Source of the DNA: Desulfocapsa sulfexigens DSM 10523
Lineage (GTDB): Bacteria; Desulfobacterota; Desulfobulbia; Desulfobulbales; Desulfocapsaceae
Length of the DNA: 32,000 nt
NCBI RefSeq assembly: GCF_000341395.1
Contig: NC_020304.1
Location: 330,001 to 362,000 of the forward strand
Direction of reading: 5' to 3'
Positions 2,479 through 32,000 of this stretch are shown here, in pieces. The notes beneath the pieces are model-generated. The model ran no database searches and was not told where the DNA came from. It saw nothing but the letters and a program-made list of their open reading frames with translations. The position numbers were made by a program, and so were the translations under genes. Every line of letters begins with the position of its first letter. Within the stretch, counting starts at the first letter, position 1.

Positions 2479-2733
2479 AATTCATGACATAAAAAGTCAC
2501 TACACTGGATTTGTCACTCCTGTAGACCCAACCATTGCTAAATAACAATATTTGGGAAGGCAATAGAGCAAAAACAAGACTTATTCATTTAACTCTCAAC
2601 ATCGAGTATCAAACAGTGAAAATCATAAAGTCAGACGGTTCACTTGACGCTGAGACCATCTGTGGCACAACGGAGAGTATTGTGGGGATGCAAGTGTCCC
2701 ATATCGTTCAACCTCAAAAAACGGAGATTAAAA

Positions 2734-3276
2734 ATGAAATGGAAAACAAATGATGGGGGATGGAGCCCTTACCTCGCCGGGGCCCTCTTAGGTCTCTTGG
2801 CCATTGCTTCAGTCCTTGCAACAACACAATTCCTTGGTAAAACAAGCTACTTAGGAGCATCAACAACGTTCGTCCGTGCCGCCGGTATTTTAGAGCAGAC
2901 AATTGCTACGGATCATGTGATCTCAAACGAGTATTTCACCAAAACAAAGGTTCGTGTTGACTGGCAGTTCATGCTAGTTGTTGGGATTGTCCTGGGTTCC
3001 CTTATTTCTTCCACTATGGATAAGAGTTTCCGGATTGAGAGCGTTCCTCCCACGTGGAAGAAACGATTTGGCCCCTCTATCGGAAAGCGTGCATTCGGTG
3101 CATTTGTAGGTGGAATTATCGCCATGATCGGAGCTCGTTTGGCTAGTGGCTGCCCAAGTGGACATGGTCTCAGCGGGATGATGCAATTGTCGGTTAGTTC
3201 GTTTGTGGCTTTAGGTATGTTTTTTAGCGTAGGTGTTTTGGTTGCTCATATGGTTTACAAAAGGAGAGCATCATGA
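2734..3276 (+). CDS. YeeE/YedE-family sulfur(selenium)-compound transporter, first half-size subunit
   Basis: ATG 2734 is preceded by GGAG at about 2722. It is a polytopic membrane protein with the conserved SGCPSGHGLSG Cys motif. It overlaps the next gene by ATGA at 3273-3276. Confidence 0.75.
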   Translation: MKWKTNDGGWSPYLAGALLGLLAIASVLATTQFLGKTSYLGASTTFVRAAGILEQTIATDHVISNEYFTKTKVRVDWQFMLVVGIVLGSLISSTMDKSFRIESVPPTWKKRFGPSIGKRAFGAFVGGIIAMIGARLASGCPSGHGLSGMMQLSVSSFVALGMFFSVGVLVAHMVYKRRAS

Positions 3277-3803
3277 ACAGCAGTCAATGGTTGGGTCTAG
3301 TCACTGGTGTACTTTTTGGTTTTCTACTCCAAAAAGGTCGTGTTCTTCGTTTCGACAAACAAGTTGGAGCAATGCTGTTAAAGGATATGACGATATTCAA
3401 ATTCATGCTGTCGGCAATTATGGTGGGAATGGTCGGGATACTCCTGCTCGCAAATTTTGAGGTCATTACTTTGAGCCACAAGCCAATGAACGTAGGTGCT
3501 GTGTTGATAGGAGGCGCCTTGTTCGGTGCCGGATGGGCAATCATGGGTTTTTGCCCCGGTACATCACTGGGTGCTTTGGGCGAAGGTCGCTGGCATGCGG
3601 TGTTTGCTATAATAGGCATGGTGGTCGGAGCAGCCTTGTATGCCGAGCTCTACCCTTTCTTTAAAGCAACCATTCTGGCGTGGAAAGATTTCGGAAAAAT
3701 TGGAATACCGGAAACACTTGGTATTTCGCAATGGATAATCATTCCAGTATTTTGGGTAGGGACAATCACTTTATTCTTTTTATTTGAGAAGAAAAAATTG
3801 TAA
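3273..3803 (+). CDS. YeeE/YedE-family transporter, second half-size subunit
   Basis: AAGGAGAG Shine-Dalgarno sequence at 3261-3268. It is hydrophobic with a GFCPGTSLGALGEG motif, the same family Cys motif as its partner. It is translationally coupled to 2734..3276. Confidence 0.75.
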   Translation: MNSSQWLGLVTGVLFGFLLQKGRVLRFDKQVGAMLLKDMTIFKFMLSAIMVGMVGILLLANFEVITLSHKPMNVGAVLIGGALFGAGWAIMGFCPGTSLGALGEGRWHAVFAIIGMVVGAALYAELYPFFKATILAWKDFGKIGIPETLGISQWIIIPVFWVGTITLFFLFEKKKL

Positions 3804-5510: not shown

Positions 5511-6008
5511 CTAATCCATCGGAACAAGAGAAAACCCCCTGTTCTGATAGGCAATCATGGAAATGTACCCATTCTGGGTCACTTCTACTTCAGCCCGGAA
5601 ATCCTCCGGGTTGATCCCCTGAAGGTCTGCTGCCATGAGACACTGTTCCATGTGGACACCTTCTTTGGCAAAGGTTTCAAGCCATTCATGTACTTCAGCC
5701 TTTGCCAGCTTTTCCTCTTCCTCAACATACCCGGTACCACTGGTGATAAACTGACTGGCTTTTCCGCGAAAAGCGATAACAACTTCAGGTTTAACGCCAG
5801 CTGCCTTGAGCTGTGAAAGTGTTTTGTCTATAAGTGAAAGACGAAGTACTAACTTTTGCGGATTACCAACGTTGACGTCAAAATAGATTTTTACAGTTTC
5901 AAGTCCTGCCAGAGATTGGCTTTGGGTATATTCCTTCCCCTGGGCGATTCCAAAAGAAAAAAACAGAAATGCAGAAATACATATCAGTAAAAGCGTTCGT
6001 GTAAACAT
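5511..6008 (-). CDS. DsrE/DsrF-like sulfur-relay family protein with signal peptide
   Basis: GGAGG lies 7 nt upstream of ATG 6008. The N-terminal signal peptide is MFTRTLLLICISAFLFFSFGIAQG. The body matches the COG1416/DsrE-like pattern (KIYFDVNVGNP..., VVIAFRGKA, conserved Cys in EQCLMAADLQGI, QNGYISMIAYQNRGF). Confidence 0.75.
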   Translation of the reverse strand: MFTRTLLLICISAFLFFSFGIAQGKEYTQSQSLAGLETVKIYFDVNVGNPQKLVLRLSLIDKTLSQLKAAGVKPEVVIAFRGKASQFITSGTGYVEEEEKLAKAEVHEWLETFAKEGVHMEQCLMAADLQGINPEDFRAEVEVTQNGYISMIAYQNRGFSLVPMD

Positions 6009-14671: not shown

Positions 14672-15535
14672 CTAACTTTGCAGAAAAACCTGCGCTTTCT
14701 CAATCTCCTCTTCAACACCGAGGGCCACTTCTCCAAACATATCCCATGTCAATCCAGTTATTTTCAGCATCTTATCAGCACCGTCTTCTGCCGGAAAAGG
14801 ATCCCCCGCATAACCCAGATCAAGGATATTTGCATACATGTTGGCAAGCCCAACATAGGCGGCACGTACCCTGTGTTCTTCAGGTGCTTCCTCCACGTCA
14901 TGATGAAAAGCTATCGAGCAGGTCATGGCCTCGTTCAGCTTCCATTTTTCGGCTATCATTCGTCCAACTTCCTGGTGATCGACTCCCAGCATATCACGTT
15001 CTACTGTTATAAGCGGAAGGCACTCCTTCTTCACTCTATTCAGAACATCGATATATTCATCACCAAATGGAATTTTTCCTAGATCATGAAGAAGTCCGGC
15101 TACAAAATACTCTTCACACTCCATCACTGGAACACCATTGGCCTTGGCCAGCAACTTGGCACACACTCCCGTGGCGATGGAATGGGCCCAGAATTTCTTG
15201 GTTGGAAGAGACTGTGACTTTTTGGCACCGGACACCGAGCGAATAATAGCAGTACTTAACGCCATATTCTTAACCGTATTCATCCCAAGCATGGTGATGG
15301 CGCGAGTAAGCGAAGTTACCTTGTTCACAAGAGAGTAATATGCAGAGTTAATAAGCTTCAGAACCTGACCGGTAAGAACCGGATCAAGTGAAATCACCCT
15401 ATTCAACTCATTTGGAGAGGCATCGGTACGACTGCAGATCTCCATCACCTTCCCCACTGTGGTGGAAAGGCTTGGCATTCGTTCGATAAATCTGGTTATG
15501 GCTTTTCTATTGGCTGCGCCATCTTCTTGCATCAT
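14672..15535 (-). CDS. HDOD-domain signalling protein
   Basis: MPSLSTTVGKVMEICS...ASPNELNRVISLDPVLTGQVLKLINSAYYSL and HDLGK are typical of HDOD. It lies 17 nt upstream of the MBL gene on the same strand, so the two are a likely operon. Confidence 0.85.
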   Translation of the reverse strand: MMQEDGAANRKAITRFIERMPSLSTTVGKVMEICSRTDASPNELNRVISLDPVLTGQVLKLINSAYYSLVNKVTSLTRAITMLGMNTVKNMALSTAIIRSVSGAKKSQSLPTKKFWAHSIATGVCAKLLAKANGVPVMECEEYFVAGLLHDLGKIPFGDEYIDVLNRVKKECLPLITVERDMLGVDHQEVGRMIAEKWKLNEAMTCSIAFHHDVEEAPEEHRVRAAYVGLANMYANILDLGYAGDPFPAEDGADKMLKITGLTWDMFGEVALGVEEEIEKAQVFLQS

Positions 15536-21738: not shown

Positions 21739-23784
21739 ATGCAAGACATCATGACTATCTGTAATTACTGTGGCTGCGGCTGCGGCGTGTATCTTCGTGT
21801 CGAAGAGGGCCTTGTTGTGGGTTCTCACCCCAGCAGAAGTCACCCCATCAGTCGTGGTAATCTCTGTTCCAAGGGATGGCACCTTCATGAATTTATCCAC
21901 TCTCACAAACGACTGAAAGAACCATTACTCAGGCAAAACGGCATACTTCAAGAGGTAAGCTGGGATGAAGCTCTGGATTTTACTGCCGCAGCACTTCTCC
22001 ATGCAAAAGAAACAACCGGTCCCGACAGCATAGGTGTGCTTTCGAGCGCAAAATGCAGTAACGAAGAAAACTATCTCCTCCAGAAACTCACCCGGGCCGG
22101 GCTCGGCACCAACAATATTGATCACTGCGCACGACTCTGACATTCTTCCACTGTGGTAGGTCTTGCCACAAGCTTTGGATCCGGTGCCATGACAAATTCC
22201 ATTGGTGAACTCATTGATGCCGACGTCCTTCTCATCACCGGTTCCAATACCACGGAGACCCACCCTCAGATTGGCCGTAATATATTAGAAGCTGTGGATC
22301 GCGGGGCAAAACTGCTCGTCATCGATCCACGCAAAACAGATATTGCCAGACAGGCTGATATCCATCTTGCACTCCGTCCGGGAACCGATATTGCCCTGAT
22401 CAATGCCATGATGCGTATCATCCTTGACGAAGATCTTGCCGACGATCTTTTTATCTCCATGCGCACGGAGAATTTCATCGCTCTTCGTGACTATCTCCAT
22501 CGTCTTGATCTTGATGAGCTGGCACGCATCACAGAAATCGACCGTGCCACAATCCGCGAAGCTGCCTGCATCTACGCCAGAAGCAGCAAATCCGTTATCT
22601 GCTACTGCCTTGGAGTCACTCAACATACCTGCGGCACTGATAATGTTCAGGCCGTGGCCAACCTTGCCATGCTCACCGGCAATGTCGAAAAAAAGCATAG
22701 TGGGGTTGATCCCCTTCGTGGCCAGAACAACGTTCAGGGTGCCTGTGATATGGCAGCACTTCCAGCGGTATTGCCTGGCTATCAAAGCCTTGCCGACCTT
22801 GAGGTGCAAAAGCGTTTTCGAGATGTCTGGAAGCATGACGTCCCGACTACTCCCGGAAAAAGCCTGACAGAAATGACCCATTCTGGAAAAGATGGAGCCA
22901 TTAAAGCCATGTTTATCATGGGCGAAAACCCGGCACTCAGCGATCCCCACTTGAACCGTGTGAAAACCACCCTGGAGAATCTCGACTTTCTGGCAGTATC
23001 CGACATATTTCTCACTGAAACGGCACAGCTCGCCGATGTGGTTTTTCCTGCCGCCTCCTTTGCTGAAAAGGGTGGCACCATCACCAACTCCGAACGAAGG
23101 GTACAGATTTGCCGACGTGCCATTCCCCCCATCCACAATTGTCGCCCTGACAGCCACATCATCATGGATCTCGGAAAACGTATTGGCTGCCCCGGCATGG
23201 ACTTTGACAGCGATGCCGAAATAATGGAAGAGATCAGTCTGCTCACCCCCATCTATGGAGGCATGCATCACGACAGACTTGCCCGGAACCACGGCCTGCA
23301 ATGGCCCTGCCTTGATCGGAATCATCCCGGCACCGAATTCCTTCACAAGTATTATTTCGCCAGGGGAAAAGGCCGGTTCACCATCACCAGACACCAGGAG
23401 CCCTACGAGAAGACAGAAAAGAAATACCCATTCACCCTCGTCACCGGCCGTGGCTCCTATCACCACTATCACACGGCAACCATGAGCAGAAATTCCAAAC
23501 GACTGGTACGAGAATATCCGCTGGCTTTGCTTGAAATCAACAGAGCAGACTGTGAAAAATTGCAACTGAAAGACGGCGAGACCGTTGAACTCAGCTCAAA
23601 ACGCGGGACAGTGCGGATAACCACTCAGGTCACCGATCGCGTCAAACCAGGTACTGTCTTTTCCTCCTTCCACTTTTTTGAAGTTCCCATCAATGAGCTC
23701 ACCGTTGATGCCATGGATCCGAAATCAAAATGCCCGGAATTTAAAGTCTGTGCAGTACAACTCAAAAAGGTGGCTCATGATTGA
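21739..23784 (+). CDS. fdhA: Selenocysteine-containing formate dehydrogenase catalytic subunit (FdhF/FdhA-type, cytoplasmic, Mo/W-bisPGD)
   Basis: Track ORFs 21730..22140 and 22153..23784 are in the same frame and are separated only by TGA 22138-22140. The joined product reads [30 protein letters not shown], the canonical FDH active-site Sec context. The N-terminal CNYCGCGC is a 4Fe-4S motif. RGQNNVQGACDMAALP matches E. coli FdhF. There is no Tat signal. The start is ATG 21739, or GTG 21730. Confidence 0.9.
22147..22179 (+). promoter_or_regulatory. Bacterial SECIS hairpin for the fdhA UGA
   Basis: The stem starts 10 nt after the UGA: CUGUGG (22151-22156) / CCAC-A-AG (22166-22172, one bulged A). 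The apical loop UAGGUCUUG contains GGUCU, as in the E. coli fdhF SECIS loop. A lower extension pairs UCCA 22147-22150 with UGGA 22176-22179. Confidence 0.7.
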
Positions 23785-24826
23785 TTTAAAAGAGCTGATT
23801 CTGAGCAAGGACAACCTCTATCCGCTGCTGCGTAAACTAAGGAAGGAAGCCCGACTCATTGCACCGGTAAAAAACGAACACGGGGACACCCTCTTCAGAC
23901 CTGTTGGCGACATAGATACAACGGATATCGATCTGGAAAATCAGCCACAGGAATCTCTCAAACCTTTCTTCCTTCCCCAACAGGAAACACTTACCGGATA
24001 CACAATTAACAAGGGTGAGTACAGTTTCAGCCCGCCGCCCCCTGCCAAGAACACCATCTTCTTTGGTGTCAGATCCTGTGATCTTACTGCCCTTCTCTAC
24101 ATGGACCTTATTTTTTCCAAACCATTCAAAGACGCCACCTATTTTGACAGGCGTAACCATTCACTCATAATTACCCTGGGCTGCAACCAGCCATTTGCCA
24201 ACTGCTTTTGCGAAGCCACGGGCAGCGGTCCATACCTGGAATACGGCTATGGCCTCCAATTTATTGACATTGGAGATCGCTACTACGTCTCGGCAGGTAG
24301 GGGGAAAGGAGCCGACCTCCTTAACAAATGGAGTTATTTTTTTCGTGAAGTTGAGGAAGAAGATCAAAATCGTCGATACCAGCTCTTTCTCGAAGCCCGG
24401 GGACAGTTCACCAGAAATATCCAGGTGCCCCATGCCTGCCGAAAGCTGCAGCAGGAACCTGTGGCTGAAGCAATATGGGAAAAACTCTCCAGCCGTTGCT
24501 ATGATTGTGGCGGCTGCGCCTATGTCTGTCCCACATGTACCTGTTTTTCTGTGGATGACAAACCACAGGACAACAACAGCGGAATCCGGGTTCGAAGCTG
24601 GGACGCCTGCACCAGTAGTGGTTTTACCAGAATGACTGGAGGCCACAATCCTGTCGACCGCACCCGCCATGCCCTGAAAAGACGTTTTCTCCATAAACTG
24701 AAGCATGATTTTGCAAGTCACGGGAAAGCCTCCTGTACTGGGTGTGGACGCTGCATAGATATCTGTTTTGGTGGTGTCGACATCACCACTTTTATTGAGT
24801 TGTTCACACAGCAGGAGAAACCATGA
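23777..24826 (+). CDS. AsrA/HydB-like iron-sulfur subunit (anaerobic sulfite reductase A / sulfhydrogenase beta family)
   Basis: ATG 23777 has AAGGTGG upstream and overlaps the fdhA stop by 8 nt. It has two ferredoxin-type motifs, CYDCGGCAYVCPTC and CTGCGRCIDIC, plus an N-terminal CNQPFANCFC. Confidence 0.75.
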   Translation: MIDLKELILSKDNLYPLLRKLRKEARLIAPVKNEHGDTLFRPVGDIDTTDIDLENQPQESLKPFFLPQQETLTGYTINKGEYSFSPPPPAKNTIFFGVRSCDLTALLYMDLIFSKPFKDATYFDRRNHSLIITLGCNQPFANCFCEATGSGPYLEYGYGLQFIDIGDRYYVSAGRGKGADLLNKWSYFFREVEEEDQNRRYQLFLEARGQFTRNIQVPHACRKLQQEPVAEAIWEKLSSRCYDCGGCAYVCPTCTCFSVDDKPQDNNSGIRVRSWDACTSSGFTRMTGGHNPVDRTRHALKRRFLHKLKHDFASHGKASCTGCGRCIDICFGGVDITTFIELFTQQEKP

Positions 24827-25659
24827 ATAAAAATTTCATTCCTGCCCAGGCCATCATCCGGGAAATTATCCGGGAAAATGAACAGATCGCCACATTTCGT
24901 CTGGAACTGACGAACAAGCGTCTCCCCTTCACCTTTCTTCCCGGCCAGTTTCTTATGCTCTCGGTACCCCATTGTGGGGAGGCGGCCATATCCATCTCAT
25001 CTTCACCGGACAGGCTGCCACTCGTAGATCTCTCTATTCGCAGGGCCGGTGAACTCACGACAGCCATCCACGGAATGAAAAAAGGAGATCAGGTCGGAAT
25101 ACGAGGCCCCTTTGGTAAGGCCTTTCCCATCGAAGACTTTGCGAACCGGGATCTCCTCTTTGTAGCCGGAGGAATTGGTCTGGCTCCGCTCAAAAGCGTC
25201 ATTGACCACTGCCTTTTTCAGAGCGGTCTTGAGGAAGACGCGGTGCAGAGCATCACCCTCCTCTACGGCAGCAGAACACCGTCAGATATCGCCTTCAAAC
25301 AGGCGATAGAGTCGTGGCAGAAGCAGGGAGTGGATTGCAGACTAACGGTGGACGAAAAAGACAGCACCTGGAACGGCCATGTGGGGCTGGTAACAGAACT
25401 ACTCACAGATGTCACCATAACCGGCAACACGAAGGCCCTTGTCTGCGGCCCCCCCATCATGATCCGCTTTGTCATTGCCAGCCTTGCCGATCTGGGCTGT
25501 GGCGACGAGTCAATTTTCACAACTCTCGAACGCCATATGAAATGCGGCATGGGGATTTGCGGGCACTGCCATCTGGACGGCAGGCTGATCTGTCTTGATG
25601 GCCCGGTTTTCAATGTGAGTCAGTTAAAAAAACTTGATGTAATGGAGTTTGCCAGATGA
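24823..25659 (+). CDS. AsrB/PyrK/HydG-like FAD/NAD(P)-binding [2Fe-2S] oxidoreductase subunit
   Basis: ATGA overlap and an AGGAGAAA Shine-Dalgarno sequence. It has an FNR-like fold (PGQFLML.V, RRAGELT, GPFG, LFVAGGIGLAPL, CGPPIM) and a C-terminal CGMGICGHC....C 2Fe-2S motif. Confidence 0.8.
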   Translation: MNKNFIPAQAIIREIIRENEQIATFRLELTNKRLPFTFLPGQFLMLSVPHCGEAAISISSSPDRLPLVDLSIRRAGELTTAIHGMKKGDQVGIRGPFGKAFPIEDFANRDLLFVAGGIGLAPLKSVIDHCLFQSGLEEDAVQSITLLYGSRTPSDIAFKQAIESWQKQGVDCRLTVDEKDSTWNGHVGLVTELLTDVTITGNTKALVCGPPIMIRFVIASLADLGCGDESIFTTLERHMKCGMGICGHCHLDGRLICLDGPVFNVSQLKKLDVMEFAR

Positions 25660-27647
25660 ATACAACACAGGAAACCAGCACTGTTACCTTTCTTCCTGCC
25701 AATAAAAGTATCACAGTGAAAAACAGAAGCACTCTTATGGAGGCAGCCAGGACAGCTGGCGTACATATCAACGCATCCTGCGGTGGTGCAGGGGTCTGCG
25801 GAAAATGCCGGGTAATTATTGAGCAGGGCATGGTGACAGGTGGAGAAAGTGAAAAGCTCTCAGCTACAGAATATGTGCGGGGCTACCGACAGGCATGCAC
25901 GGCAGAGATCAGTCATGACATCACCGTACGCGTTCCTGAAGAATCAGGACGCCAGAAAGGGGGATTAAGTACTGACATTCCCCTTCGCCACCATGCCCGT
26001 ATGCACGTCTTTAATATTGATGAACTCAAGGAGGCAGGCATCTTCTACCCACCGGTGGAAAAACTCTGTCTGGAACTCTTGAAACCTGATGCAAACGACA
26101 ATCGGGCCGATGTAGGACGTCTGATCCAGGGCCTGGCTGATCAGCACAACAAGCATCGACTTGTCACCGGCCTTCCCGTTATGCGGAAAATCAGAGCTGC
26201 ACTGCGGGAAAAAAATTTTCTGGTCACGGTAACCCTGGAACAACCCGTGAACAACAAATCAAAGAGTCACCTCCTTAACATTCAACCGGGCAGATGGGAT
26301 CACCGCAACTTCGGCCTTGCCATTGATATTGGCACCACCACCATCCATGGAGTTTTAATCGATCTTTACAGTGGCAAGATCCTGGCTAAGGATTCCTGCT
26401 ATAATCCTCAAATGAGCTATGGTGAAGATGTCATTTCACGAATCATCTACGCTGAAAAGCCAAAAGGCCTTGCCATGATGCAGGATCTGGTGGTGGAAGC
26501 TATCAACACGCTTATTGGAAACATGCTCAACAAAGCTGTCCCCCCAGAGAATAGCGGCCATGGTGCCATAAGCCGGGATGAAATTAACTCCATCACCATC
26601 GCTGGTAACACCACCATGACCCATCTGCTCCTGCAACTGGAGCCAGACAATATCAGACGTTCCCCCTATGTCCCTGTTTCCACATTTTTTCCTCCCCTGC
26701 GTGCAGCCGACCTCGGGATTGAGTTGCCGCAACACTGTGTATCCCTCCTCTTTCCTGCAATATCAAGCTATGTGGGTGGTGACATCGTGGCGGGAGTCAT
26801 GGGATCCGGTATGTACCGTACAGAACTACTCACCCTGTTTATCGATGTGGGCACCAATGCGGAAATTGTTATCGGCAACAGGGAATGGCTTGCCTGTGCC
26901 GCCTGTTCGGCGGGGCCTGCCTTTGAGGGAGGAGGAATCACCCACGGCATGCGGGCAGTGGAAGGTGCCATCAGTGATTTCAGCCTCAACCCTGAAACCC
27001 TTGAGCCAATGAATGTAACCGAGGGCAACAAGGCTCCCATCGGTATCTGCGGTTCTGGTCTTCTTATCATTGTCGCCACCCTCTTTGAACACGGCGTCCT
27101 CAACCAGAGCGGAAAATTTAACGACCTTGACTCATCCCGCATTCGCAAAGGACGAAGCGGTATGGAGTATGTACTGGCCTGGGAAGATGAATGTGCTGCA
27201 GGTCATGACATCGTGCTCAACGAAGTGGACATCGACAACTTTATCCGGGCAAAAGCGGCAATCTTTGCCGGGGTTTCGACCCTCATGGAACAGGTGGGGC
27301 TGGAGGTGGGTGACCTTGAACAGGTTATCCTGGCCGGAGGCTTCGGTTCTTTTATCGACCTTGACAGCGCCATGACCGTGGGTCTGCTGCCGGAGATAGA
27401 TCCTGACACAATTCTCTACGTGGGAAACGGCTCTCTGATGGGTGCCTGGATGAGTGAACTCTCCAACCATATCCGCCAGGATGTGGTTTCAGTGGTACGC
27501 AAGATGACAAGTTTTGAACTCTCGGAAGTCCCCAGCTTTAAGGATCAGTATGTGGCATCCATATTCCTGCCCCATACCGACCTCAGTCTTTTTCCCGGTG
27601 CTATGCAGCGAAGAGCTGCACGGACCCCACCCTCTATCCCACGGTAA
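25656..27647 (+). CDS. [2Fe-2S] ferredoxin-ASKHA (DUF4445/COG3894, RACo/RamA-like) ATP-dependent reductive activase homolog
   Basis: ATGA overlap with the asrB-like gene. The N-terminal plant-type ferredoxin motif is ASCGGAGVCGKCRV...C. The ASKHA/DUF4445 hallmarks are AIDIGTTTIHGVLIDL.SG, NPQMSYGEDVISRIIYA, IAGNTTMTHLLL, DVGTNAEIV and GFGSFIDL. Confidence 0.8.
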   Translation: MNTTQETSTVTFLPANKSITVKNRSTLMEAARTAGVHINASCGGAGVCGKCRVIIEQGMVTGGESEKLSATEYVRGYRQACTAEISHDITVRVPEESGRQKGGLSTDIPLRHHARMHVFNIDELKEAGIFYPPVEKLCLELLKPDANDNRADVGRLIQGLADQHNKHRLVTGLPVMRKIRAALREKNFLVTVTLEQPVNNKSKSHLLNIQPGRWDHRNFGLAIDIGTTTIHGVLIDLYSGKILAKDSCYNPQMSYGEDVISRIIYAEKPKGLAMMQDLVVEAINTLIGNMLNKAVPPENSGHGAISRDEINSITIAGNTTMTHLLLQLEPDNIRRSPYVPVSTFFPPLRAADLGIELPQHCVSLLFPAISSYVGGDIVAGVMGSGMYRTELLTLFIDVGTNAEIVIGNREWLACAACSAGPAFEGGGITHGMRAVEGAISDFSLNPETLEPMNVTEGNKAPIGICGSGLLIIVATLFEHGVLNQSGKFNDLDSSRIRKGRSGMEYVLAWEDECAAGHDIVLNEVDIDNFIRAKAAIFAGVSTLMEQVGLEVGDLEQVILAGGFGSFIDLDSAMTVGLLPEIDPDTILYVGNGSLMGAWMSELSNHIRQDVVSVVRKMTSFELSEVPSFKDQYVASIFLPHTDLSLFPGAMQRRAARTPPSIPR

Positions 27648-27658
27648 AATAAAACACC

Positions 27659-29440
27659 ATGCGCATACTCATCCTCGAAGACTCCAAAGCCAGCAGGGTG
27701 CTGCTGGAAGCCCGCCTCAACAAAGCAGGCCATACAACTCAATCTGCAGTCAACGGCCGTCAGGGGTTCTTCCTGGCAACATCCAGACAGTACGACGCAA
27801 TCATCAGTGATCTCAATATGCCCGGCTGGGATGGTTTCAAATTTATTGAAGCCATGAAGGTTGTCTGTCCCCGAATTCCCATTATTGTTATAACCGGATC
27901 TGCCAACGAACCAGACACCAAAGAACGTCTTCTTTCCTTCGAAATGGTTATCGGAGTCTTTGGAAAACCGTTTGACTTCGATAAAATCAATGTGCTGCTC
28001 AGCCAGTTAAAAGGGCAAAGCAACAGCTCGGTCAGCAAAATGGCAAGGATCGTCGCAACCATCGGGCCTGCAAGCAACAGTAAAGAAATTCTCGGCAAAA
28101 TGATCGTGGCGGGGATGGATGTGGCAAGACTGAATTTTTCCCACGGAACCCACGAGGAGCACGGCCAAACTCTCGCAAACATTCGTGCCGCCGAGACCGA
28201 ATGGGGAAAACCGATCGCCGTCCTGCAGGATCTCTGTGGACCAAAAATCCGCACCGGACAGATGGAAAAAAATGGTGTACAGCTAACGGTCGGGAAGACT
28301 GTCATTATCCAGGCCGATGAAACAGTCGGGACCGCCAGTCGCTTTTCAACCATTGCTCCCGAAATCCTGATCGATCTCCGGGAGGGCGACCCAATACTGC
28401 TTGACGATGGCCTACTGGAACTGAAGGTTACAAAAGAAGGTGCCAGGGAAGTCCTCTGTAAAATTATTGTGGGTGGCATTTTAAAATCCAGCAAAGGAAT
28501 TAACCTCCCCATGACCCAGCTTTCTCTTCCATCGGTCACTGAAAAGGATAAGCGTGACCTGGCATGGGGACTTGACCACTCCATTGATTATGTGGCCCTC
28601 TCCTTTGTCCGTTCTGCAGCGGAAATTCGTGACATAAAAAAAATCATTGCCGCATCCGGTAAAAGAGATATCCGGGTTATTGCCAAAATTGAAAAACCTG
28701 AAGCAGTGGAGCATATAACAGACATTATCGAGGCTGCCGATGCCATCATGATTGCCCGTGGTGACATGGGGATTGAGCTTCCTGCCGCCCGGGTTCCACG
28801 AATCCAACAGGAAATAATCAACCTCTGCTGGCAACAGAACACACCCGTTATAACTGCCACCCAGATGCTTGATTCCATGACTGCAAACACAATACCAACA
28901 CGGGCTGAAGTGACAGATGTCTCTGTGGCCATCAAAGAAGGAACCGATGCCGTAATGCTTTCCGGCGAAACAGCTGCCGGAAAGGATCCGGTAAATGTGG
29001 TACGAACCATGGCCTCAATTATCACCGAAGAAGAACAGTATCAGTTCAAAGATCCCTTTGAAAATATAAAGGATGACACAACAAGGGCTAACCCTGCAAT
29101 CACCGCAGCAGCCAACCTTCCCGGTGTGGTACTGACAATGCTACTGGACGCACGGGGTGTACTCTACCAGCAGTTGTCAAAGTACAGCCGTAACGAGCCT
29201 AATATCCTGGTGACACGGTCACTCCATGTTGCCAGACATTCAAGCCTTTACAAGAACCTGGTGCCTATCATTATACGAGATGACATTCCACGTGATGAAG
29301 TTGTTTTCAAGGCCATGGGTATAGCAAAAGAGTGGGGGTACTTGAAGACAGGTGACATTTTTGCTGTGGTTGAAGGTGAACGCCTGACCCAGGGAGGGAT
29401 CCCACAGACAGGTGCATTCCAGCTCATCACCGTTAGCTGA
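27659..29440 (+). CDS. pyk: Response-regulator receiver domain fused to a complete pyruvate kinase
   Basis: Residues 1 to about 120 form a REC domain: ILILEDS acidic pocket, phospho-acceptor D51 in IISDLNMPGWDG, VITGS, and the conserved Lys in GKPF. From M128 (nt 28040) there is a full PK: ARIVATIGPAS, MDVARLNFSHG, GPKIRTG, YVALSFVRSA, VIAKIE, MIARGDMGIELP, ITATQMLDSM, PTRAEVTDVSVAI.EGTDAVMLSGETAAGK, plus a C-terminal regulatory domain. Confidence 0.9.
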   Translation: MRILILEDSKASRVLLEARLNKAGHTTQSAVNGRQGFFLATSRQYDAIISDLNMPGWDGFKFIEAMKVVCPRIPIIVITGSANEPDTKERLLSFEMVIGVFGKPFDFDKINVLLSQLKGQSNSSVSKMARIVATIGPASNSKEILGKMIVAGMDVARLNFSHGTHEEHGQTLANIRAAETEWGKPIAVLQDLCGPKIRTGQMEKNGVQLTVGKTVIIQADETVGTASRFSTIAPEILIDLREGDPILLDDGLLELKVTKEGAREVLCKIIVGGILKSSKGINLPMTQLSLPSVTEKDKRDLAWGLDHSIDYVALSFVRSAAEIRDIKKIIAASGKRDIRVIAKIEKPEAVEHITDIIEAADAIMIARGDMGIELPAARVPRIQQEIINLCWQQNTPVITATQMLDSMTANTIPTRAEVTDVSVAIKEGTDAVMLSGETAAGKDPVNVVRTMASIITEEEQYQFKDPFENIKDDTTRANPAITAAANLPGVVLTMLLDARGVLYQQLSKYSRNEPNILVTRSLHVARHSSLYKNLVPIIIRDDIPRDEVVFKAMGIAKEWGYLKTGDIFAVVEGERLTQGGIPQTGAFQLITVS

Positions 29441-29654: not shown

Positions 29655-31370
29655 ATGAGTACTTTTTTAAGCAAAATCTCGAAACTTGATTCAATTCAAG
29701 ATGTAGCTCTTCTGTCAAACCAGGGCGAAACTCTTTTCTTTGATCAAAAAAACAACACACCGGGAGACAGAGAAAGAGCATCTTCATACTGGAATGAGAT
29801 CATTTCAGACTTAGATCAGCCTCAAATGGCTGAATTTGCGTTTACCAATGGAAGATACTATCTCACCCGCACCCCCATCGGCTATCTGATCATCGGATTA
29901 AAAAATGATAAGGCTCTCGAAAAAATCAAGCAGGCCTGCGCGACCATTCTCACAAAACTCTCCAACCCGGCACTCTGCAAACGACTCCTTTTAAACCTGT
30001 TGACTCAGTCTGAGGATATTCTCAAACCAAACATCATAAGAGAACTGCTTCCCTATGCTGATGAGGAAGTCGCGACTGTTCTTATGTTTCTTCTTCGCAG
30101 GGAAAAGGAGATCGCTCCACTGGTCAAGGAAGAACTGCTGCTGTTGATTTGCCAGACACTCGGATACTGTTCTAACAATGATGCTATAGCTGTTTTGAAA
30201 GCCTTTCTGGCCAGCCGTAAAAGCGGAGTAAACACTCCAGGCGAACAGGTCATAGAAGCAGTAAGGATATCCATAGAACAACTTGAACAGAACCATCCTC
30301 CCAAAACACAGGATGGCCTGCAGAAAGCGCCATCTCCTGGGGTCAGGAAAACAGTTCAAGCAGATATCCCCCAGCAACAACAGATTGATGAACTCCTTAA
30401 CAGGGGGAAGAAAGACGAAGCAGTTGCGCTGATAATGCAGCTCATTGAGCAGTGCGCTGGCAAAAAACAGTTTGAAGCTGCAGATCGATTACGTGACTAC
30501 CTTATTAAAATCAACCCCATGGCGTTGCTTGAAATCATTCGTGCTGCAGATGTGATTGAAGGGGCAAAACAGTCAGGGATAGATAAAAAACACCTGGAGA
30601 CCTGGAGTAAACTAACGGAGATTTTCAGTAGTGAGGAGTTTTCAGCACTCTACCATGCCATGGCTCTGAGAAGTTACACAAAGGGGAAAACAATAGTACA
30701 GCAGGGCTCCACCGCCAGAACACTCCTTTTCATCAACGGTGGCCAGGTACAGCTTCAGGCACTTAATCAGGACACATTGATACCATTGAGTGTGAAGGGA
30801 GCAGGAGAAATTATCGGAATAGAAACATTTTTTCAGGCCTCAGTCTGGACGGATCAGGCTAAAAGTCTTGGTTGCGAGGTCTTTTTACTTTCACGGCAAA
30901 AACTTGACGCCCTCAAGGAACAGCACCCCTCTCTCGAACCAAAATTATCCGACTTCTGCGCCAGCTTCCAGTCGGTTAGTGCAGAATTGACAAAAACCGG
31001 CAGAAACAGAAGGCAATTCAAAAGAAAAAATGTATCGGGAAGAATCAGTTTTGCCGTTCTTAACACAAACGGCACGGAAATCACCACAGAAGCAAAGGGA
31101 GATCTTATTGATATTTCAACGGGCGGAGTGGCGTTTTCCATCCACTCATCCCAGAAGAAGAATGCTGCCGCCCTATTTGGTCGTCAACTCAGAATTAGCT
31201 TCCAGACTACGACAACAACACAGATTATCATTCGGAGAGGAACAGTACAGGCCGTTCGAGATATAGATCTTATCGGAAATGAATACTCCCTGCACCTGGA
31301 ATTCAGCGAACAGTTGAGCTATTCAGAGTTGCAACAGATAGCCGGAGCGTCTCCAGAAGCCAGGTCCTGA
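29655..31370 (+). CDS. Multidomain signalling protein: Roadblock-like N-terminus, helical repeat region, cyclic-nucleotide-binding domain, C-terminal PilZ domain
   Basis: The PilZ motifs are RRQFKRKNV (RxxxR) and DISTGGVAF (DxSxxG) near the C-terminus. The cNMP-binding-like beta-barrel is ...KGKTIVQQGSTARTLLFINGGQVQLQ...GAGEIIGIETFF. The N-terminal 100 aa resemble a Roadblock/LC7 fold, which is a weaker call. Confidence 0.75.
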   Translation: MSTFLSKISKLDSIQDVALLSNQGETLFFDQKNNTPGDRERASSYWNEIISDLDQPQMAEFAFTNGRYYLTRTPIGYLIIGLKNDKALEKIKQACATILTKLSNPALCKRLLLNLLTQSEDILKPNIIRELLPYADEEVATVLMFLLRREKEIAPLVKEELLLLICQTLGYCSNNDAIAVLKAFLASRKSGVNTPGEQVIEAVRISIEQLEQNHPPKTQDGLQKAPSPGVRKTVQADIPQQQQIDELLNRGKKDEAVALIMQLIEQCAGKKQFEAADRLRDYLIKINPMALLEIIRAADVIEGAKQSGIDKKHLETWSKLTEIFSSEEFSALYHAMALRSYTKGKTIVQQGSTARTLLFINGGQVQLQALNQDTLIPLSVKGAGEIIGIETFFQASVWTDQAKSLGCEVFLLSRQKLDALKEQHPSLEPKLSDFCASFQSVSAELTKTGRNRRQFKRKNVSGRISFAVLNTNGTEITTEAKGDLIDISTGGVAFSIHSSQKKNAAALFGRQLRISFQTTTTTQIIIRRGTVQAVRDIDLIGNEYSLHLEFSEQLSYSELQQIAGASPEARS

Positions 31371-31381
31371 TGTAATCGGAG

Positions 31382-32000
31382 TCAGGCACGCGCCTTCAAT
31401 TTACGAAGAAGCTCCTCAACCGGACATTCAGAGGTAACATCCATTCGTGCCGGTGGATTTCCTGGCACCAGAAGAGCAGTCCTGCCGTCCTGTCCTTCAA
31501 TATAAGCAGCCTTAAAAACCCCAAGCCCTGAAGATTTACCCAGCATTGCCAGTTTACTGTTTACAGCTATCATGCTACTTTCACCGGCAATTGCCCCAAC
31601 ACCGGACATCCCGCCCAACTCTTGAATAATAAATTTTTTTAACTCGTCGAGTGACAAATTTTCAGCTCCTTCAGAATTTTGGTTTGCAGCTTCCCTGGCA
31701 GCAGTAGTAGAATCAGCATGTTCATCCTTTGCCACCAAAGCCGCCATGATTATTGTCTGGACTGGACTGTTAACCATATTCTCCATAAATGGACAATCAT
31801 GCCGGAGAAACACAGTCACATCATCCCAGAAGAATACTCTGGTTGCCGCTTTAATCCCTTTATATTTCCCAACTCTGGCATCAAGCAACTGGCCATCTTT
31901 AAGATAGAGTATCCCCCCCTCGTCCGAACCGTTATCAAGCATACGTATGGTACATGTTTTCCCTTCCATCTCCATAAGCTGGAGAAACATTGTTGGGGAA
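31382..32000 (-). CDS. DUF4388 (PATAN-like) domain protein, 5' end outside the window
   Basis: The reading frame stays open upstream of the track Met (31990) to the window edge (..SPTMFLQLMEMEGKTCTIRM....GGILYLKDGQLLDARVG...G..A......W). This is the DUF4388 pattern, which normally begins a few residues earlier. The C-terminal third looks Roadblock-like. Confidence 0.65.
   Translation of the reverse strand, partial: SPTMFLQLMEMEGKTCTIRMLDNGSDEGGILYLKDGQLLDARVGKYKGIKAATRVFFWDDVTVFLRHDCPFMENMVNSPVQTIIMAALVAKDEHADSTTAAREAANQNSEGAENLSLDELKKFIIQELGGMSGVGAIAGESSMIAVNSKLAMLGKSSGLGVFKAAYIEGQDGRTALLVPGNPPARMDVTSECPVEELLRKLKARA

Follow-up and report, generated by a model that had tools for sequence, protein, structure and literature searches.

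A conserved response-regulator pyruvate kinase of Desulfobulbales with an intact receiver pocket and a replaced effector loop, and its possible control by phosphorylation

Pyruvate kinase (PK) is a textbook case of metabolite allostery, and receiver (REC) domains have outputs that are almost always transcription factors or signalling enzymes. In the receiver-enzyme proteins CheB, PleD/WspR and RpfG, phosphorylation relieves inhibition or promotes the active oligomer. Among PKs, the pair L113 and K117 is the signature of the K+-independent enzymes (PMC4284704, PMC8835810). VcIIPK of Vibrio cholerae, a K117 enzyme, shows only 0.5% activity without ribose-5-P (PMC5501398), which indicates that PKs of the K+-independent class can depend absolutely on their activator. 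Within the window (the whole 32-kb stretch of Desulfocapsa sulfexigens DNA analysed here), a single gene encodes a REC domain joined to a PK, hereafter REC-PK. Our literature searches found no published description of such a fusion; the first-pass annotation of this DNA had likewise been aware of no biochemical work on one. The features of the gene are as follows.

27659..29440, plus strand: complete REC-PK gene, 593 aa and a TAA stop, ATG start
27659..28003, plus strand: REC domain, aa 1-115, with a (beta-alpha)5 pattern (Pfam, Spo0F alignment, conservation, AF2)
27677-27682, plus strand: E7-D8 acidic pair of the phospho-acceptor quintet
27761..27778, plus strand: alpha2 motif Q35-G36-F37-x-x-A40, invariant in the REC clade
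27809-27811, plus strand: D51 of the quintet, in SDLNMPGWDG
27893-27895, plus strand: T79 of the quintet
27965-27967, plus strand: K103 of the quintet, in GKPF
28004..28039, plus strand: linker, aa 116-127 (conservation, AF2)
28040..28042, plus strand: M128 codon, at the position of a normal PK N-terminus, not conserved
28040..29002, plus strand: PK A (TIM barrel) and B (lid) domains, aa 128-448 (Pfam PK, alignment to 2e28 and 3t05)
28229..28255, plus strand: DLCGPKIRT, aa 191-199, aligned to DTKGPEIRT of 2e28
29003..29437, plus strand: PK C-terminal alpha/beta domain, aa 449-593, divergent
29147..29164, plus strand: replaced effector phosphate loop D497-A-R-G500-V-L502 (alignments to yeast, 2e28 and 3t05)

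The ORF contains zero internal stops and begins 11 nt after the stop codon of an upstream RACo-like gene. Its 593-aa product has three parts, REC (aa 3-111), a 12-residue linker and a full PK (aa 128-593). It could be argued that separate REC and PK genes have been fused by a sequencing or assembly frameshift, a reading that can be virtually dismissed. An identical single REC-PK ORF is present on an independent 15.5-kb Logan assembly contig, the same architecture recurs as a continuous ORF of about 593-596 aa in more than 160 homologues drawn from cultured strains and numerous assemblies, and the linker, earlier put at about 10 residues, is in frame and confidently placed in the AF2 model. The independent contig and the homologues in many genomes thus rule out a frameshift join: the fusion is no assembly artefact, and REC-PK is a genuine single-chain response-regulator pyruvate kinase, with REC and PK in one gene as first annotated.

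The PK part is complete, and the first-pass annotation's statement that all catalytic motifs are present is borne out. The 593-aa protein matches TIGR01064 (pyruv_kin, NCBIfam) with 482 bits against a cut-off of 306, and the barrel (aa 128-448) matches PF00224 of Pfam with 361.5 bits against a cut-off of 30. The catalytic and metal-binding residues R157, N159, S161, D191, K343, E345, D369 and T401, which we take to be R73, N75, S77, D113, K270, E272, D296 and T328 of PKM, are present and invariant in 57 homologues. As far as can be read from the sequence, the enzyme is catalytically complete. Within DLCGPKIRT, L192 and K196 occupy the positions numbered 113 and 117 in rabbit PK, residues that assign REC-PK, by sequence, to the K+-independent type. 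The AF2 model (pLDDT 89.6, pTM 0.89) has the PK fold, with A barrel, B lid and C alpha/beta domain, and Foldseek aligned it to PKs of the PDB at E ~1e-50 with TM scores (target) of 0.73-0.91. These PDB matches covered the PK body only, and the same search found no solved REC-PK structure.

The C-terminal domain is less ordinary. Its presence, noted earlier as that of a C-terminal allosteric domain, is upheld, but it is not a normal one: the PK_C (PF02887) match at aa 500-577 reaches just 34.4 bits in Pfam (cut-off 28) and ~30 bits against the PDB, and the effector loop is non-canonical. The loop consensus is D-x-x-G-x-L in place of the canonical T/S-x-S-G-x-T/S. In our alignments D497-A-R-G-V-L502 lies opposite S402-T-S-G-T-T407 of the yeast enzyme, TVSGKT of 2e28 and TESGST of 3t05, so that D497, R499 and L502 stand where yeast has S402, S404 and T407, and a deletion removes the counterpart of yeast W452. 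The 57-sequence alignment shows D497 and G500 as invariant, and 165 of 166 REC-clade sequences have D497. REC-PK therefore lacks the effector loop of the sugar-phosphate-activated PKs (FBP, Rib5P and AMP types). The equivalent of yeast R459 is still basic (K551 here, Arg in the family consensus), suggesting that the effector site has been changed rather than abolished and may bind a different ligand. The loop replacement is a new observation of the present analysis.

The receiver, by comparison with recognised receiver domains, is well preserved. Pfam matched Response_reg (PF00072) to aa 3-111 with 62.4 bits (cut-off 30.2), and AF2 predicts five strand-helix units (E2-6/H10-22, E26-30/H33-42, E47-51/H59-69, E75-79/H85-92 and E97-102/H107-115). 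The closest solved receiver is Spo0F (PDB 1pey, 2jvi; 60 bits over aa 2-113), whose D10/D11, D54, T82 and K104 align to E7/D8, D51, T79 and K103; Spo0F is a stand-alone phosphorelay intermediate, whereas the receiver here is covalently joined to an enzyme. The E7/D8 pair, D51 and K103 were all found where the first reading had located them, in an intact pocket, and this is not a pseudo-receiver, in which pocket residues are missing. Across 120 homologues, D51, K103 and S/T79 are kept in 120 and D8 in 118, and the full quintet (E/D7, D8, D51, S/T79, K103) is found in 161 of 171 PKs with the N-terminal extension. The D-loop persists in four main-clade members in which D8, D51 or K103 is missing. 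At position 101, the place of the aromatic (Y/F) switch residue in beta5, this protein has Phe (F101) and 86 of the 120 homologues have Leu; the alpha4-beta5-alpha5 face, the usual output face of receivers, is poorly conserved. The QGF..A motif of alpha2 could be the surface by which the receiver docks onto the kinase.

These features lead us to propose, with a probability of roughly 0.6, that REC-PK is an orphan response regulator in which phosphorylation of the receiver Asp replaces sugar-phosphate allostery of the PK. The idea of two-component control of this enzyme had been raised at first annotation, and the replaced sugar-phosphate loop strengthens it. Points against the proposal are the weakly conserved output face, the four main-clade exceptions, the basic residue retained in the effector site, the few evolutionary events behind the link between loop and REC, and the lack of a partner kinase at the loci covered (both below). 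In the proposed mechanism, REC would be phosphorylated on D51 by a histidine kinase encoded elsewhere, as is common for orphan response regulators, or possibly by a small donor such as acetyl phosphate. A fixed contact between REC and PK, probably at the alpha2/alpha3 side of the receiver, would relay the phosphorylation state and shift the PK between low- and high-activity states, with activation as the favoured direction. Because the effector loop is replaced, with Asp at the phosphate-binding Thr/Ser site, we infer that REC phosphorylation may now provide the activation for which ordinary PKs rely on ribose-5-P or FBP. D. sulfexigens, a sulfur disproportionator, fixes CO2 and is gluconeogenic, and a signal-gated switch of this kind could prevent flux from PEP to pyruvate while PEP synthases operate in reverse. 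The linker shows the lowest conservation of any segment, and its confident prediction (pLDDT 84-87 in the AF2 model) is consistent with a defined REC-PK arrangement.

The architecture is conserved in Desulfobulbales and rare elsewhere. More than 160 distinct homologues (57-98% identity) contain the same three Pfam domains; all of the best 120, with lengths of 568-634 aa, have REC, PK and PK_C. REC-PK loci were found in 39 species-representative genomes, and every named genome among them belongs to Desulfobulbales. When 1.84 billion cluster representatives were searched exhaustively with the junction (aa 1-200), only 8 hits reached E<=1e-30, and the small number of clusters that span the junction indicates that the fusion is lineage-restricted. 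Much of the junction list consisted of multi-receiver proteins with additive REC matches, which are no PK fusions; P0133 from the same search is a tandem or eukaryote-like PK, and the Elusimicrobia matches of the genome scan are stand-alone receivers. In a neighbor-joining tree of the PK part, all PKs with the N-terminal extension form one clade (bootstrap 76), within which a clade with REC and the D-loop and a pseudo-REC clade each have a bootstrap of 100. Since dS is saturated (>1), only dN could be compared: it is similar in the two parts, 0.07-0.10 for REC and 0.06-0.07 for the PK A/B part in the same three pairs (among the genes of the window, L001 and L002). These data support an architecture that is conserved and under purifying selection. 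A single acquisition of the N-terminal CheY-like receiver is probable, and the REC-PK lineage is now fixed in Desulfobulbales. One REC-less relative, P0140, was considered as a possible REC-less sister family and set aside: it is a singleton of uncertain status on a 3.1-kb metagenome contig, its start lies 34 nt from the contig end and 5 codons after an in-frame stop, and its 119 nearest relatives are all ~590-600 aa long with a Pfam-recognised receiver in all but P0395, whose REC is degenerate. It provides no evidence for such a family.

The pseudo-REC clade (P0166 and P0270-P0273, metagenome proteins of 593-600 aa) is sister to the REC clade in its PK part and shares the N-terminal extension and the QGF..A motif. 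Its receiver, unlike that of REC-PK, is unrecognised by Pfam; S/T79 and K103 are lost in 5/5, and the E/D7-D8 acidic pair is intact in 0/5. The T-x-S-G-x-T loop remains canonical in all five, and their PK_C score is normal at 73 bits. Judged by residue content, this clade fits the description of pseudo-receivers. Among the 171 PKs with the N-terminal extension, 160 have both an intact REC and D497, and none has an intact REC together with a canonical loop; of ~85 REC-less relatives, all but one have the canonical form. This correlation represents essentially one or two evolutionary events rather than many independent ones.

The sister clade brings up a different role for the receiver, that of a structural, oligomerisation or ligand-binding module that tunes PK tetramer assembly or stability without phosphorylation, as pseudo-receivers do. 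That the clade retains the N-terminal domain and QGF..A after losing the pocket suggests that the domain has a value independent of phosphorylation. The four main-clade members with a lost pocket residue, the unconserved position 101 and alpha4-beta5-alpha5 face, and the lack of a linked kinase at the loci described below point the same way. However, the main clade has kept the full quintet in 161/171 sequences across more than 40% sequence divergence, a retention that is hard to explain without phosphochemistry, and the pocket has decayed exactly in the clade in which the metabolite loop is kept. We therefore regard a phosphorylation-free receiver as an unlikely explanation, and control of the PK through D51 as the preferred one.

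The genomic context is that of an orphan regulator. A domain scan of the window, covering ORFs of 150 aa or more (apart from a few inside or overlapping annotated genes) and some shorter ones, found no histidine kinase (HisKA/HATPase), in agreement with the first reading. No conserved kinase neighbour was found across 32 related loci; a hybrid kinase lies ~6 kb from the REC-PK gene in four of them, and a related ORF in a fifth. The upstream FdhA-like, Fer4, FAD-NAD and RACo-like genes accompany REC-PK in two close Desulfocapsa MAGs only, and at the remaining 30 loci the neighbours are unrelated and often convergent. This variability, in 30/32 loci, led us to reject a functional link to the neighbouring genes. 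Such variable contexts might also suit a receiver that acts as a metabolite sensor, one that autophosphorylates without a dedicated kinase, using acetyl phosphate or some other small acyl or amido phosphate, and so feeds back from the pyruvate, acetyl-CoA, acetyl-P and acetate branch onto PK. Autophosphorylation from small donors is a general property of receiver domains, and the closest solved receiver is of the stand-alone Spo0F type. Orphan response regulators, however, commonly have unlinked kinases, and the sensor is a variant of the phosphorylation model rather than an alternative to it; we consider this version, in which small phosphates are the sole donors, improbable. A tblastn search found no second PK or REC in the window, and elsewhere in the genome other PK paralogues exist, as three genes (UWK_00304, UWK_00318 and UWK_00709) are annotated as pyk in the D. 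sulfexigens genome paper (PMC3739170).

The ATG of M128, at nt 28040, is in frame and at the site of a normal PK N-terminus, and the first-pass annotation had pointed out both this and the missing Shine-Dalgarno sequence upstream. One gene might then yield two products, full-length REC-PK and a REC-less PK made by internal initiation, and a 9/12 promoter-like match at 27960-27987 could be taken in the same sense. Of 120 homologues, however, 68 have Lys at position 128, just 36 have Met and 15 have Leu, Gln or Arg, so internal initiation is unsupported as a designed feature. The promoter-like matches (4 observed against 2.8 expected) are at chance level, as were the results of the promoter and terminator scan around the gene as a whole. 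Together with the absence of a Shine-Dalgarno sequence before M128, these findings make a second product very unlikely.

Beyond the phosphorylation model itself, we tentatively put forward a wider scenario, possible though not the one we would expect to hold in full. The exit step of glycolysis in Desulfobulbales may have moved from metabolite feed-forward control to a two-component signal, with a K+-independent PK that has lost its sugar-phosphate site and strictly requires phospho-REC for activity. A sensor kinase responding to environment or energy state, or acetyl phosphate, would then decide directly between PEP-to-pyruvate flux and gluconeogenesis, and the sister clade would represent the alternative outcome of the same ancestral fusion, with the metabolite site kept and the receiver decayed. 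If true, a receiver wired to a glycolytic enzyme that has lost its effector loop would be a clear natural swap of regulatory inputs on one scaffold. It would bear on how autotrophic sulfur disproportionators, sulfate reducers and possibly relatives of cable bacteria avoid futile cycling between PK and PEP synthase, and REC-PK may serve as an engineering part, a compact phosphorylation-switchable PK. The proposal is directly testable because the gene is present in cultured, sequenced strains, namely Desulfocapsa sulfexigens, Desulfobulbus propionicus, D. rhabdoformis and Desulfogranum mediterraneum.

Compared with described PKs, REC-PK shares its catalytic core, L113/K117 (DLxGPKIR) and A/B/C body with VcIIPK and the other K+-independent (Lys117, type II or PykA-like) enzymes, the class in which activity can hang almost wholly on an allosteric activator (PMC5501398). 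Those enzymes have ~470-480 aa and no N-terminal domain, and their T-x-S-G-x-T loop binds the sugar phosphate; in REC-PK, 127 aa of REC and linker stand in front, and the loop reads D-A-R-G-V-L. Of the solved structures, the PKs of Geobacillus stearothermophilus (2e28) and Staphylococcus aureus (3t05) match best in sequence (E = 2e-99 and 1.2e-96 over aa 123-578), and both also carry an extra domain beside A/B/C, a phospho-carrier-like domain of the PEP-utiliser type (PF00391). Pfam found no PF00391 in REC-PK; the extra domain is C-terminal and His-based in 2e28 and 3t05 but an N-terminal, Asp-based receiver here, and these two enzymes, unlike REC-PK, have Glu117 (DTKGPEIR) and a canonical effector loop. 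In domain order REC-PK resembles CheB (REC-methylesterase), PleD/WspR (REC-GGDEF) and RpfG (REC-HD-GYP), with an N-terminal receiver, a complete pocket, a short linker and an enzyme. It differs from them in that the alpha4-beta5-alpha5 face and the aromatic switch are not conserved and that it has no linked kinase or chemotaxis operon. By analogy with CheB, PleD and RpfG, relief of inhibition or formation of an active oligomer would be expected for REC-PK as well, although their outputs are signalling enzymes, whereas the output here is an enzyme of central metabolism that is already an allosteric tetramer.

The first-pass annotation had placed a response-regulator receiver (REC) and a pyruvate kinase (PK) in one reading frame. 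The REC-PK gene is indeed a single uninterrupted ORF with the N-terminus MRILILEDSK, and all domain profiles scored above their cut-offs.

27659..29440 (+): REC-PK, 593 aa
Residues 3-111: Pfam Response_reg, 62.4 bits (cut-off 30.2)
Residues 128-448: Pfam PK barrel, 361.5 bits (cut-off 30)
Residues 129-575: NCBIfam TIGR01064 pyruv_kin, 482 bits (cut-off 306)
Residues 500-577: Pfam PK_C, 34.4 bits (cut-off 28)

The identical ORF was present on an independent Logan assembly contig, which indicates that the fusion is real and not a frameshift or an assembly join. The in-frame Met at the PK N-terminus (M128) lies at nt 28040 as reported, and conservation among the best 120 of 8,000 scored homologues revealed that the internal initiation proposed there is not a family-wide feature. 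An AlphaFold2 model built with 57 homologues (pLDDT 89.6, pTM 0.89) contains five strand-helix units in REC and a confident linker (pLDDT 84-87). A Foldseek search of the PDB returned PK bodies only (TMq about 0.72, corresponding to the PK part) and no solved REC-PK.

The acidic pocket E7/D8, D51 in SDLNMPGWDG and K103 in GKPF were all found as claimed. The nearest solved receiver is Spo0F (60 bits), whose D10/D11, D54, T82 and K104 align with E7/D8, D51, T79 and K103. Among the best 120 of 8,000 homologues, D51, K103 and P104 are invariant (120/120 each), D8 occurs in 118/120, position 7 is Glu or Asp in 118/120 and position 79 is Thr or Ser in all 120. The complete phospho-acceptor quintet (E/D7, D8, D51, S/T79, K103) is present in 161 of the 171 N-extended PKs gathered. 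Five main-clade proteins are without it, one through a truncated gene call and four through point mutation: P0275 (D51N), P0313 (D51N, from a 'Planctomycetota bacterium' MAG), P0389 (D8N) and P0395 (D51V and K103N). Judged from these variants, phosphorylatability is occasionally lost inside the REC-PK clade. Between the closest genomes, dN is similar for REC (0.07-0.10) and the PK A/B part (0.06-0.07), with dS saturated. The receiver is atypical in its beta5 'switch' position 101, which is Leu in 86/120 of the same best homologues of 8,000, and in its weakly conserved alpha4-beta5-alpha5 face. Invariant residues are found in the alpha2 region (N32, G33, Q35, G36, F37, A40) and in the beta3-alpha3 loop and alpha3 (W57, G59, F62, A65).

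In the kinase domain, R157, N159, S161, D191, K343, E345, D369 and T401 are unchanged throughout the family; aligned to solved PKs, we take them to be R73, N75, S77, D113, K270, E272, D296 and T328 of PKM. Aligned with DTKGPEIRT of the Geobacillus enzyme, DLCGPKIRT has Leu and Lys at positions 113 and 117; this pair is the signature published for PKs that are K+-independent (PMC4284704, PMC8835810). One characterised K117 enzyme, VcIIPK of V. cholerae, has 0.5% activity without ribose-5-phosphate (PMC5501398).

The main new point of this analysis is that, by alignment, the sugar-phosphate effector loop of PK is replaced in REC-PK. Matches to the C domain are weak (34 bits in Pfam, about 30 bits against the PDB), and the canonical phosphate loop T-x-S-G-x-T, represented by yeast S402-T-S404-G-T-T407, TVSGKT in 2e28 and TESGST in 3t05, aligns to D497-A-R-G500-V-L502. 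There is also a three-residue deletion at the position of yeast W452, and K551 occupies the position of yeast R459, where the family consensus is Arg. The four pocket mutants retain the Asp-type loop despite their mutations. Canonical loops are kept in a sister clade (P0166, P0270-P0273) of metagenome PKs of 593-600 aa, in which PK_C scores normally and the N-terminal domain is a decayed receiver, below Pfam detection and with S/T79 and K103 gone. Approximately 85 REC-less PKs, the next-nearest relatives among the matches listed, all carry (F/I)T-x-SG-x-TA, P0140 excepted.

Receiver state and effector loop in the N-extended PKs gathered
Intact quintet, Asp497: 160
Intact quintet, Glu497: 1
Incomplete quintet, Asp497: 5
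Degenerate receiver, canonical T-x-S-G-x-T (sister clade): 5
Intact receiver, canonical loop: 0

This correlation reflects few independent events. In a neighbour-joining tree of the PK part alone, the N-extended PKs and P0140 form one clade (bootstrap 76/100) that splits into a REC/D-loop clade and a pseudo-REC/canonical-loop clade (100/100 each). The simplest reading is a single fusion in the ancestor, after which the two clades took complementary courses, a provisional view because the bootstrap is moderate and the sister clade small. The Q35-G36-F37-x-x-A40 motif is common to both clades; its persistence where the phospho-pocket has decayed suggests that this surface serves docking or structure and not the phosphochemistry. 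P0140 (L044 35-1492), a singleton, is the only REC-less member nested within the REC-PK clade. On its 3.1-kb contig it begins 34 nt from one end, with an in-frame stop five codons upstream. Its 119 closest relatives listed (best 120 of 8,000) all have a length of about 590-600 aa, and Pfam recognises a receiver in 118. P0140 could be a secondary REC loss or an assembly problem.

Taken together, the data support a phosphorylation-competent REC permanently joined to a catalytically complete PK of the K+-independent type whose sugar-phosphate loop is replaced. Allosteric input would then come from REC phosphorylation, transmitted through a putative REC-PK contact surface. The main rival is that REC acts as a structural domain independent of phosphorylation; the sister clade and the four pocket-loss variants show that such a role is possible. 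That the quintet is kept almost universally speaks against this being the domain's main function. If phosphorylation is the input, its effect is most likely activation, because PKs of this class can have almost no activity when their activator is absent and because an autotroph that runs gluconeogenesis needs its PK to be inactive by default. D. sulfexigens is a CO2-fixing disproportionator in which glycolysis probably operates in reverse, and its genome lists three PEP synthases (PMC3739170). A second pyk, for which a check had been proposed, exists in the genome annotation, which has three (UWK_00304, UWK_00318 and UWK_00709; PMC3739170); within the 32-kb window, no second PK or REC was found besides REC-PK.

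REC-PK starts 11 nt after a four-gene cluster.

21739-23784 (+): FdhA-like molybdopterin oxidoreductase, in-frame TGA at 22138-22140 (HCARL*HSSTV), N-terminal piece matching Molybdop_Fe4S4
23678-27647 (+): Fer4_22 4Fe-4S protein, FAD/NAD(P) oxidoreductase with DHODB-type Fe-S domain and RACo-like protein (663 aa, 2Fe-2S and ASKHA), with 4-nt overlaps

The first is apparently a selenocysteine-containing catalytic subunit of the formate dehydrogenase type, divided in two by gene callers. Only two Desulfocapsa MAGs (L001, L002) share this arrangement; in the other 30 loci, REC-PK is flanked by unrelated genes, which frequently lie on the opposite strand. A domain scan of nearly all window ORFs of at least 150 aa and some shorter ones bore out that no histidine kinase is encoded there. 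The only kinase seen near relatives' REC-PK is a hybrid histidine kinase, located about 6 kb from the gene in four loci; a fifth locus has a related ORF (L013, L014, L015, L022, L038; several Desulfobulbus loci). In L014 (668-3709) it has 1013 aa and a C-terminal receiver, and lies upstream. Neither adjacent nor family-wide, it is a candidate phosphodonor. REC-PK is therefore an orphan response regulator, for which an unlinked kinase or acetyl phosphate would be the donor.

Other genes of the window were recorded as follows.

29655-31370 (+): 571-aa protein, cNMP-binding domain at aa 339-424, about 330 N-terminal residues without Pfam match, weak C-terminal PilZ (21.7 bits, just under the cut-off of 22.5); an unusual signalling architecture, also downstream of REC-PK in L002 (61% identity)
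31382-31990 (-): DUF4388 protein, signalling-type, not a histidine kinase
14672-15535 (-): HDOD/HD-domain protein, likewise
2644-3803 (+): adjoining Sulf_transp half-proteins, 210 and 176 aa, 4-nt overlap
5511-6008 (-): DsrE-like protein

The genes of the last two entries may handle sulfur, the host being a sulfur disproportionator.

The proposed domain-architecture search showed the fusion to be conserved but lineage-restricted. REC+PK+PK_C occurs in all of the best 120 of 8,000 homologues (identity 59-100%, 568-634 aa), with Desulfobulbus propionicus, Desulforhopalus, Desulfogranum mediterraneum and many Desulfobulbaceae MAGs among the named sources; the closest genome matches are uncultured Desulfocapsa (88%). 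REC-PK is encoded at 39 loci on one-genome-per-species contigs, the named ones all Desulfobulbales, as is the host (Thermodesulfobacteriota; Desulfobulbales; Desulfocapsaceae). Three Elusimicrobia matches were rejected as fusions, their receivers being free-standing. An exhaustive search of 1.84 billion 50%-identity cluster representatives with the junction (aa 1-200) gave only eight matches at E<=1e-30, and junction-spanning ones reduce to the main family (P0030), P0122 (47% identical), fragments and P0166 (34% identical). Junction-spanning clusters are few, which makes the architecture lineage-restricted rather than widespread. A few members bear MAG labels from outside Desulfobulbales, P0313 among them.

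These sequences stand in public databases with the bare automatic annotation 'pyruvate kinase', and full-text literature searching found no description or biochemistry of a REC-PK fusion. REC-PK is worth attention, being conserved, present in cultured strains and open to direct testing. We rate it as a pyruvate kinase whose regulatory module is new or, seen from the other side, a response regulator whose output is new.
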